4,575 nucleotides of DNA from IMG/VR virus record IMGVR_UViG_2609459804_000014, positions 1 to 4,575 of that record. The stretch is one strand, 5' to 3'. The stretch comes from a virus (taxonomy: Duplodnaviria; Heunggongvirae; Uroviricota; Caudoviricetes). Positions 1 through 3,000 of the stretch are shown piece after piece; position 1 is the first letter of the stretch, and every line of letters starts with the position of its first letter. Made by a program: the position numbers.

Positions 1-3000
1 AATCTGATGACCATTGAAGGACGCACTAAATTATTTTCAGCAATCCCTCAGCCTACGAAAATTCTGTATTTGATGATTGTTTTATTTGCTCTCTTTTTAT
101 GCAGCCATTCTGTTGCTTATAAAAAAGCACCACTATCCGCACCCTCATCTCAATATCTTTGTCGCCGGATAAAAATAACTATCAACCACAAGTATCATGC
201 TCTCGGTGAGCACGCACTCCCCGGTTTTTTATCTTTGACAGGGGTGAAGGAGGCTATTGTGCCTCCTTAAATTTTTATTACCGAATAATTTGCCTCAACC
301 AGGGTATTATTTAGCTGTAGATTTGTAGCAAGGGGCTATGGCTTGCCCCTCTCTTTTTTATCAGCCGTCTGTGATACCGATTTTATACGCCAGTATAGCT
401 TCCGCATCATCCAGCGCTTCAATCTCTTTTTTCATCGTGCGCTGTCTGACATGAATTTCCAGACCTTTGGTAAACATCGCCTGCTCTGCAGCAGCACTCA
501 GAGCAATCAGTGTTTCAGCGTCCATCGGTACGTCATTATTGTCCGCATCCGTCCAGAAAAACGCCTCCGGCAGTTTCCCCGCTTTCGCTGCCGCCACCGA
601 CGGCTCAAGACGCGTCTGCGTTGACTTCCCGTAGTCCCATTTACGCCCATTGTGCTCAAACGTGTAACTCGCCGCTTCCATCGCATTACGCCAGGTGTTG
701 ATTTCGTCGTTTTTCAGGCGTCTGGCGTTTTCCCTGTCAGTGTCGTTTTCCTGGTATTCAGATACAGGGCCGTGATTTCCTGCTTTCAGTTCGCCCCAGA
801 GTTTTTTGCCGTGTGGCGAGTTGTCATATTCGGTTGCCGTATAGGGCAGCCAGCTCTCCTCCCCTTCAAACTGGATCTCACAGTCGATAGTGCCGTCACG
901 GTTATAAGCGGCATTTCTTGCTGATTTGATTGTGTGCATGAGTCTCTCCGTCAGGCAATGCGCTCAAATATTCCGATTCCTGCGCCTGCATAAATGTCAG
1001 CGCAGGCCCGCCACGTGCCCGGTGGCCTGCGGTTTGTGTTCCAGTTTTGCATGGATTCACGGGGGCCGAAGTTGCCTTCGGAATGAGTCAGGCTTATCAG
1101 TCTGAGTTTACTGCCCGGGCGGGTGTTTCCGGCCGTTATATCAATTTTGGCTGGCCACTCCCCTTCGGCATCCGTTGCCGCCAGAATAAAGCTGCCCACA
1201 TCCCAGAGTGTCCGCTGTGTTTTTGCCTGTGCAGCCTCCAGTGCTTGCCGTGCTTTCTGCCCGGCGTTTTCTGCTGCCGTCATGGCCGTCTTCACAGCTT
1301 TTGGTGTGGCAGCCAGCACTTCACTGTCACTGTCCGTTGCGCTGCTTAGCTGAACAATACCTCGCTCTGTCAGGGAGGCGTCGCCGGTCTGCGTGAGGGG
1401 GAGTATGGCAACCTCCTTCCATTCAGACCATGGCCCGTTGCCGGTGAAGTTACCTGTCACTGTCCGGATAAATTTTCGTGGTGGATTCCAGGCGGTGTAT
1501 TCCTGCTGGCAGAATCCCCATGCGCCCATCCTGATGGATAATGATCCGGCTGATGTTACCGGGTAGTGATGTGCTGTAGTGGCGCCGTTGTTGTTGGGCT
1601 GATAGTAGTCACCATGATGTTCAGGTCTCCCCAGTGTATTCAGATCCACGGCGAGGGGGGCTGTTGGTCTTGTTACTGTCAGCGCCTTAAGTGCTTTTAT
1701 TGCTTTGGGTGTGGCTGCCTTCGTTTCATCATCACTGTCCGTTGCGCTGCTTAACTGCACAATTCCCTTCTGTGCCGTCGTCGCATCTGCCACATTTGCT
1801 GCGCTGCCCGCCGGGCCTGGCTCCCCACGAGGTCCCTGAGGTCCGGCTTCGCCTCGTTCACCTTTCGGACCTGCCGGACCCGGTTCACCTCTCTCTCCGG
1901 CGGGGCCCTGTAATCCTTGCGGACCACGTTCCCCGGGTTCCCCTTTCGGCCCCGCAGGTCCGGTCTCACCGCGCTCTCCCTTTGCTCCTGCCGGCCCCGG
2001 CTCACCTCTCGGACCAGCATCCCCCTTTGGTCCCTGAGGCCCCCCCGGGTCTCCTTTTTCGCCTCTGGCCCCGGTTTCACCACGCGGCCCCATTGCTCCC
2101 TGTGGCCCGGTCGCACCACGTGGGCCAGATGGCCCTGTTGCGCCAGCTGGCCCCTGTACTCCCTGAGGTCCCCGTTCTCCTGTATCACCTTTCTGGCCCG
2201 GTATGCCCTGAGGTCCGCGCTCTCCCTGCTCCCCTTTCCCCCCACGCGGACCCGCCGGACCTGTTTCACCACGAGGACCAGCATCACCTTTCGGCCCTGT
2301 ATCGCCTTTAGGTCCTCGTGCATTCTCAGCCATACGTCTGGCTTCTTCAGCACTAACTGTAGCAGCCTCAGCACGTTTAAGAACGTCTCCGGCGGCCTCC
2401 TGAGCCACTCTGGCGGTTTCAGCATGTCGTCTGGCCTCTTTAGCGTCAGCTGCCGCTGCCTTTTCAGACTCACCTGCCCGGGTCGCCGCCTCTGCAGCCT
2501 CACTGGCTTTTTGTGCAGACTCCGTCGCTTTGCTGGTCGCAGCCTTCGCGCTTTCTGATGCAGTCTTCGCACTGGCAGCAGCGCTTTCCTTCGACTGTGA
2601 AGCCTGATTATTTTTCACCGCCGTGTCTTCGTTCAGACGACGAATCGTGGCAAGGTCATCCGCCACATTGTTCTGTATCTGCCGGAAATCTGTCAGCAGT
2701 TCTCCGGGTATGCTCACCTCAACAAGACTGCGGCGTAACAGCATATTGAGCGTCACCGTACTTTCAGTCCCCTCAATACGCACACGTCCGTAGACAGCAG
2801 TCTTCCCTTTCACCGTCACAGAAACCGCATACTCCCCCGGCTCCAGCGTCATTCCGTAATACCCGCCGTCACGAGTCACTGCTGACGCACTGGTGCCGCT
2901 GAGCGCATCCGGTGAAACTGTCAGCGCCGTCAGGGTAATATTTGCGCCTGATATTGCCTCACCATCAGGAGATTTCAGCGTCCCCGAAACAACAACACTC

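Follow-up and report, generated by a model that had tools for sequence, protein, structure and literature searches.

The window analysed here is the whole 4,575-nt stretch at positions 1 to 4,575 of the IMG/VR virus record IMGVR_UViG_2609459804_000014 (class Caudoviricetes), and the segment under study comprises its bases 1-360, which lie beyond the stop codon of tfa, the gene for a tail fibre assembly protein. This segment is probably the non-coding junction between tfa and the control region of an eib gene, which encodes a trimeric autotransporter adhesin that binds immunoglobulins, and it would carry stacked plus-facing terminators that act against transcription antisense to the late genes. 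In the mechanism that we propose, the terminator nearest to tfa (T3) would block transcription entering the late tail operon from its far side, be it host read-in at the end of a prophage, transcription of convergent genes or, as here, transcription from the eib control region. Terminator T1, together with T0 in related copies, would close two tandem units, and T2 would be a back-up that is strong in the haplotype of the window, where T1 is weak. Plus-strand transcripts of ~100-250 nt would begin inside the window or just to its left, run divergently from eib and end at T1 or T2, with T3 as a fail-safe behind them.

Predicted plus-facing terminators beside tfa

The features on which this reading is built are as follows.

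1-360, no strand assigned: right-hand part of the non-coding tfa-eib spacer, from the alignment with 57 related copies; PGAP annotates nothing here
203-230, plus strand: T1, a hairpin with a T6 tract, degenerate in the window (GGTGAG/CTCCCC; −6.9 kcal/mol)
247-280, plus strand: T2, hairpin AAGGAGGC/GCCTCCTT with the tail AAATTTTTATTA (−14.8 kcal/mol), the strong allele, found in 11 of 58 copies
331-360, plus strand: T3, hairpin AGGGGC/GCCCCT followed by CTCTTTTTTA and ending at the tfa stop codon (−12.2 kcal/mol)

A terminator scan of bases 1-400 returned exactly two sites, at 247-268 (8 bp, tail AAATTTTTAT) and 331-350 (6 bp, tail CTCTTTTTTA), both on the plus strand, where shuffled sequences gave 0.3 ± 0.6. 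The same scan found no terminator on the minus strand, on which the reverse-complement hairpins fold equally well but without a T-run. Scan, shuffles and fold energies thus agree with the first-pass annotation, which had described two plus-facing hairpin/T-tract structures and no U-tract in the minus orientation; it had overlooked a third and a fourth plus-facing terminator, T1 and T0, the latter located in a 114-bp segment that is missing from the window. Stems typical of intrinsic terminators (at least 5 bp, GC-rich, with a loop of 3-8 nt) are formed by T2 (8 bp, five of them GC) and T3 (6 bp, five GC), and the stem of T1 has an internal mismatch in the window and 8 bp with six GC pairs in the related locus L003. 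U-tracts follow all three on the plus strand only, namely GGTTTTTT at T1, AAATTTTTAT at T2 (with the T-run starting 3 nt after the stem) and CTCTTTTTT at T3.

The alleles of these terminators were compared across 58 spacer copies from E. coli genomes, phages, and viral and metagenome contigs, 46 of them full length and all different, the other 12 (among them the window itself) cut off by the end of a contig or window. T1 is a clean terminator in 45 of the 58 (CGGGGAG...CTCCCCG followed by T6, the GGGGAG allele, −14.3 kcal/mol) and is weakened in the window by a G to T change. The T2-T3 segment occurs as two haplotypes, of which the window has the minority one (11/58) with a strong T2 hairpin and T-run, and the majority haplotype has a weaker T2 (−9.8 kcal/mol) that lacks the T-run. 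Classed by T1 and T2 together, nine copies are weak/strong, 43 strong/weak, four weak/weak and two strong/strong, and the pairing of a weak T1 with a strong T2 could be compensation or mere linkage. T3 is retained under every combination of T0, T1 and T2 alleles among the 58 copies, and a strong upstream terminator is missing in only two of them.

The arrangement next to tfa recurs where the sequence does not. Ten of 11 tfa 3' flanks have a plus-facing, GC-rich hairpin whose T-tract ends 4-12 nt from the stop codon, built from at least seven unrelated stems (AGGGGC, GGGAAA, GGGGGA, AGGGGAGC, GGCGGCAGA, CGGGAC and others), and none of the 11 flanks has a comparable terminator on the tfa strand. 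Represented among the flanks are eib-like loci with unrelated spacers, prophage ends that face plus-strand ykgJ-like or potB genes, a tail gene in convergent orientation and an eib-free operon of the 933W-like kind. An architecture kept without its sequence is the best evidence available here for a terminator function on RNA entering the tail operon; since the T-tract has been kept although the stems differ, it also argues against a role on the minus-strand mRNA only, for which no A-tract is needed.

As an observation on T2 itself, its stem AAGGAGG(C)/(G)CCTCCTT amounts to a perfect Shine-Dalgarno sequence paired with an anti-Shine-Dalgarno-like sequence, and no conserved open reading frame (ORF) follows it. 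AGGAGG is also present in the locus L094, where no hairpin forms.

The spacer between tfa and eib

Among 5426 complete E. coli genomes, only 27 contain matches to bases 1-360, located at 71 places (median three per genome), and eight phage records match as well, including P-EibA of strain ECOR-9 (AF151091, 88%) and the PhiR phages; matches of 88-99% are confined to eib loci. At every related locus the segment forms the right part of a spacer that separates the tfa stop codon from the start of a YadA-like gene in the same orientation; behind this gene come orf-156, orf-60 and often eaaA, an autotransporter gene. The YadA-like neighbour is Eib, as judged from its YadA_anchor domain and its match to the EibD structures 2XQH/2XZR (E=3e-32), and by comparison with these loci an eib gene, a moron for the adhesin, is what adjoins the window on the left. 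The spacer measures ~680 bp in the structural type of the window and ~800-870 bp in the long types, and the tfa-spacer-eib block is found in prophages of two kinds, lambda-like (behind gpJ/stf) and 933W-like. While eib comes next after tfa in L001-L003 and L047, the prophage end or the next tail gene is found there instead in L095, L097, L100 and L101.

The first-pass annotation had left it between a moron and a prophage boundary. No tRNA gene was found in the window or in L003 5000-9000, no integrase gene or att duplication lies beside the segment in the related loci, and further phage or moron genes continue to its left there on the same (minus) strand. These results argue for a moron junction inside the prophage, with the horizontally acquired eib next to it, and the prophage-end alternative falls away. 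The AT-rich character of the segment and the sharp change in composition towards the fibre gene, noted then by eye, are borne out by GC contents of 0.37 (1-200) and 0.43-0.46 (101-500) versus 0.53-0.72 in the tail genes.

Across ~50 loci, identity is 94-99.5% in the spacer, while the passenger domain of eib is ~70% identical or unalignable (L003 7700-8500 versus 6900-7600). Conserved beside a diverged passenger, the spacer would therefore act as a conserved cassette boundary, and its conservation could reflect regulatory constraint or a use as homology block in cassette exchange. In prophages without eib, outside the 27 eib genomes, homology breaks inside tfa at ~386, ~25 nt before the stop codon, which suggests that the last tfa codons and everything beyond belong to the downstream module. 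Seen more widely, eib-like genes are preceded by at least three unrelated spacer families, the window type (27 genomes), the L098 type (16 genomes, mostly Shiga toxin-producing E. coli) and the L094 type.

Tandem units within the spacer

Long forms of the spacer contain two tandem units, A and B, each running from a 16-nt motif (TACGAAAATTCTGYAT) to a plus-facing terminator and measuring 115-126 nt to the end of the T-tract. Unit A is closed by T0 (GGGGAG cgtgccgt CTCCCC G T6, −12.5 kcal/mol) and unit B by T1. The window retains the following parts.

7-17, no strand assigned: 11-bp unit ATGACCATTGA of a variable-number tandem repeat, present once here and one to three times in relatives; it contains the ATG of ORF 7-270
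54-69, plus strand: 16-nt motif TACGAAAATTCTGTAT, one copy here; the long forms have a second one at a distance of 177 nt
54-134, plus strand: 5' part of unit A (sequence variant 2), from the copy alignment
135-230, plus strand: 3' part of unit B, from the copy alignment

At the 134/135 junction the window has lost 114 bp through a deletion at an ATC microhomology, and with them T0 and the second copy of the motif (the window type, or type III). The two units are old, diverged tandem duplicates. In a local alignment they score 65, where shuffles reach 40 at most (p ~0.01 for the interior alone), and the parts best kept between them are the motif (15-16 of 16 positions) and the terminator, with bodies only ~60% alike. 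Unit A itself occurs in two sequence variants, ~70% alike, whose flanks are nearly identical; one variant (type II copies) has a degenerate T0, and in one copy (L048) the whole unit was lost by a motif-to-motif deletion. In 16-20 kb of flanking prophage DNA the motif was not found again, which makes it unlike a dispersed operator. The GTDB species-representative contigs contained no match to a 22-mer taken from unit B, and a suspected homology of unit B/T1 with the terminator that abuts tfa in the eibG-like locus L098 was rejected as not significant (E=0.67).

Plus-strand transcription and points against the terminator reading

Several results weigh against a terminator stack that is in use on the plus strand. 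A position weight matrix scan of the whole spacer for a plus-strand sigma-70 promoter gave a best score of 8.6 against a shuffle median of 9.2, and none was found in bases 1-400 of the window. The association of a weak T1 with a strong T2, which would suit a back-up, may be simple linkage. RNAalifold on nine unit variants recovered the terminator stem only, with no compensatory pairs, in sequences too similar to show covariation. Finally, in the 933W-like locus L100, which has no eib, the terminator abutting tfa lies between co-oriented late genes with no obvious plus-strand transcript to stop, so that such a terminator may simply travel with the tfa cassette. That site (L100 1398-1476) consists of a plus-facing GGGGG tgat CCCCG followed by TCTTTTTGTC, in a gap of 78 nt.

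A candidate promoter site, GAAAAT within the 16-nt motif, scores 6.6. The only lead for a plus-strand transcript is a predicted CRP site, a perfect core TGTGAagttagTCACA (TGTGA-N6-TCACA) located 52-67 nt left of base 1 (L003 7934-7949), which could serve eib, a divergent transcript or both. Its core is invariant in 46 copies bar one spacer position and is flanked symmetrically at 32-33 nt by ACAATTTG and CAAATTGT. The diverged eib-like upstream region of L094 has nine of the ten core positions (2866-2881) at the same distance (~255 nt) from the start codon. The most promoter-like site in the whole spacer, TTGAAC-17-GATAAT, lies on the minus strand 11-30 nt upstream of the eib ATG and outside the window; as a predicted eib promoter it scores 9.3, only equal to the shuffle median, and the later EibG/EibD papers make no statement on the native eib promoter. 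Also outside the window, AF151091 has an annotated stem-loop downstream of eib.

A separate feature of this region is a 13-nt inverted repeat, ATCAAATTGTGCT-N14-AGCACAATCTGAT (12/13 complementary; L003 7969-7981 and 7996-8008), whose right arm ends in window 1-8. It reads TTGTGC-17-CACAAT on either strand.

Units A and B as possible small RNA genes

A less probable alternative is that units A and B are tandem Hfq-type small RNA (sRNA) genes, transcribed divergently from eib in the lysogen and perhaps controlled by CRP, in which case the window would hold a fused A/B gene. They might then form an undescribed sRNA pair with a shared 16-nt seed (TACGAAAAUUCUGUAU) and ends at T0 and T1, and T2 and T3 would be the fail-safes that shield the tail operon, although we consider this unlikely overall.

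The paralogues have kept the motif, the terminator stem and a U5-7 tail in spite of their diverged bodies, and an intact unit has a compact length, as given above. The unit body is unstructured, and the plus-strand RNA of 1-232 folds no more stably than shuffles (z = −0.85). At least one unit from motif to terminator persists in 46 of 46 full-length copies, even after deletions (the 12 truncated copies are not scorable), but unit B or the motif itself had in part been used to find the copies. The conserved predicted CRP site just upstream would suit such genes, as would the precedent of sRNAs in the late regions of other prophages, but neither unit is preceded by an acceptable promoter. A permissive Rfam search with the window and a long form gave chance hits only (E≥4) and no family, and RNAduplex pairings of the eib 5' region with unit A, unit B or their fusion were no better than shuffles and identified no target. 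The degenerate T0 of type II copies, the weak T1 of the window, the dispensability of unit A seen in L048 and the lack of covariation likewise speak against this reading.

The precedents are HnrS (bioRxiv 10.1101/2025.11.27.690950) and the Pas sRNAs (bioRxiv 10.64898/2026.05.13.724894), all of them multicopy Hfq sRNAs from late regions of lambdoid prophages. Like HnrS/EcOnc10-12 and PasA-D, the units of the spacer are short, end in a predicted intrinsic terminator, lie among late or structural genes and are multicopy because a genome has several such prophages. They differ from the Pas sRNAs in neighbourhood (PasA/C/D) or distribution (PasB, with >1000 hits versus 27/5426 genomes) and from HnrS in length and host distribution, and neither a promoter nor a sequence relation to either group was found for them; their identity with a known Pas or HnrS sRNA was rejected.

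Possible relics of module exchange or stabilisers of late mRNA

Somewhat less likely still, the hairpins may have no present function on the plus strand, either as relics of module junctions left by incoming tfa cassettes or as minus-strand elements that stabilise or process the 3' end of the late mRNA. The spacer is plastic, with its 114-bp and motif-to-motif deletions, variable tandem repeat and recombinant variants, and both the homology breakpoint with the tfa of non-eib prophages at ~386 and the tfa-abutting terminator of L100 inside a co-oriented operon would be expected of relics. Relics ought to deteriorate, but conservation of the spacer far exceeds that of the adjoining eib passenger region. 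For stabilisers, the minus-strand fold of 1-362 is indeed more stable than shuffles (z = −3.0), but the plus T-tract beside the hairpin in ten of 11 independent contexts, with stems that differ, is not something a minus-strand stabiliser requires.

ORF 7-270 and other small reading frames

The only reading frame proposed earlier for the segment does not hold up as a gene.

7-270, plus strand: ORF of 87 amino acids with an ATG start, not a gene (varying frame lengths, codon-position counts, no family)

Its stop codon TAA (268-270) overlaps the 3' arm of the T2 hairpin, just as the first-pass annotation had placed it inside the first hairpin. That annotation had called the ORF doubtful, possibly non-coding and without a clear Shine-Dalgarno sequence, and had also offered it as the plus-strand transcription unit to the left, perhaps a membrane-protein moron; comparison of the copies finds no gene and upholds the doubt, and ORF 7-270 cannot be the proposed transcription unit. 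Products of the homologous frame in the 58 copies are 21, 25 (the commonest, 27 copies), 37, 46, 77, 87, 106 or 129 amino acids long, the start ATG is ATA in at least ten copies, and L001 has a 2-bp deletion in the frame. Substitutions at codon positions 1, 2 and 3 number 24, 18 and 18, without a third-position excess, so the codon-position bias that had been suggested as a check is absent and coding is refuted on this count. No Shine-Dalgarno sequence precedes the ORF (the upstream sequence in relatives is CAGCACAATCTGATG), no Pfam or PHROG family matches it at E≤0.01, and PGAP calls no gene in the segment in 27 genomes. The frame of 87 amino acids exists only because the window lacks the 114-bp segment that is present in most copies, and on this comparison ORF 7-270 is an accidental, non-coding frame made by the deletion that fused unit A to unit B.

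That the region encodes any small hydrophobic protein, whether ORF 7-270 or a peptide of 22-46 amino acids ending just before T0 (a membrane moron or type I toxin), is therefore very improbable and already largely refuted by the copies. Among the candidates, which for the peptide are MIVLFALFLCSHSVAYKKAPLSHV (type II) and MFNLHSFYAIILSTIKTPLSHV (type I), there is a hydrophobic stretch followed by KK, and both long variants contain a short ORF that stops directly before T0 and regains the same C-terminal frame (PLSHV), but no candidate start has a Shine-Dalgarno sequence, the starts are not aligned between the variants, and by our own estimate an open frame of ~22 codons arises by chance about once in five at the local composition. 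A type I toxin-antitoxin system was also considered and rejected, as the small ORFs are unaligned between variants and lack a Shine-Dalgarno sequence, and no significant complementarity was found. An ORF of L094 with a strong Shine-Dalgarno sequence, aligned to the ATG at position 7, was dismissed as chance: it runs through the terminator and antisense into tfa, and its frame is not shared with L095.

Relation to known loci and significance

The eib loci of E. coli ECOR-9 prophages were reportedly described by Sandt and Hill in Infection and Immunity in 2000. In the P-EibA record, 3236-3594 are 88% identical to window 1-358 and the genes come in the same order, namely orf-191A (tfa), spacer, eibA, orf-156A, orf-60A and eaaA. 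It differs in that only two stem-loops flanking eibA are annotated there, and nothing in the segment. The background of P-EibA is lambda-like, whereas the window belongs to a 933W-like short-tailed (PhiR5_2-like) prophage with the type III deleted spacer and the minority T2/T3 haplotype.

The term moron, which reportedly goes back to Hendrix and Juhala in 2000, denotes an additional gene that sits inside a late operon and has a promoter and a terminator of its own. The eib gene resembles one in that it is AT-rich and horizontally variable, follows the tail-fibre genes, has a candidate promoter (with a score at shuffle level) and an annotated stem-loop downstream, and is missing in related prophages. 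The terminators studied here are different from a moron's own terminator, since they lie upstream of the moron promoter and face both the moron and the late operon. A terminator stack at a moron boundary would still be a feature of a known kind, and ordinary overall.

With a false gene call removed, the segment can be placed as the tfa-eib junction of Eib prophages. The tfa comparison also suggests a testable rule, that the DUF4376 tfa genes of E. coli prophages are abutted by an inward-facing terminator, which would protect the late genes from antisense read-in. Attention is also drawn to an unusually conserved non-coding region of ~680-800 bp, with its predicted CRP site and two sRNA-like units, upstream of the eib serum-resistance/adhesin genes; how these genes are regulated (by IbrAB, in static growth and in stationary phase) is poorly understood. 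Should the units be expressed, a virulence-associated adhesin would have a new family of prophage sRNAs linked to it; otherwise this would be an ordinary moron boundary.

Neighbouring genes and minor observations

All genes of the window are on the minus strand, and their products are structural proteins of a 933W-like (PhiR5_2-like) prophage.

361-939, minus strand: tfa, the final gene in the fibre cluster, whose product is a tail fibre assembly protein of the ORF-191A family (DUF4376; PF14301, E=1.4e-20; phrog_1141; annotation in relatives)
951-3002, minus strand: collagen-repeat tail fibre protein (Pfam Phage_fiber_2, Collagen, phage_tail_N)
2999-3649, minus strand: SU10-type adaptor, a structural gene
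3652-4212, minus strand: structural gene

The fibre gene, in which the "phage tail fibre repeat" occurs twice, has a long collagen-like Gly-X-Y region at 1700-2330 whose GC content reaches 0.72. Homology to the fibres of Stx phages is restricted to 1702-4573, which suggests that the C-terminal receptor-binding part of the fibre and tfa form a swapped module. One further terminator-like site, ATCCGCCCGGGGCGGGT with AATGCATTTT at 3938-3954 (minus), lies on the coding strand inside the gene at 3652-4212 and is probably a chance match.

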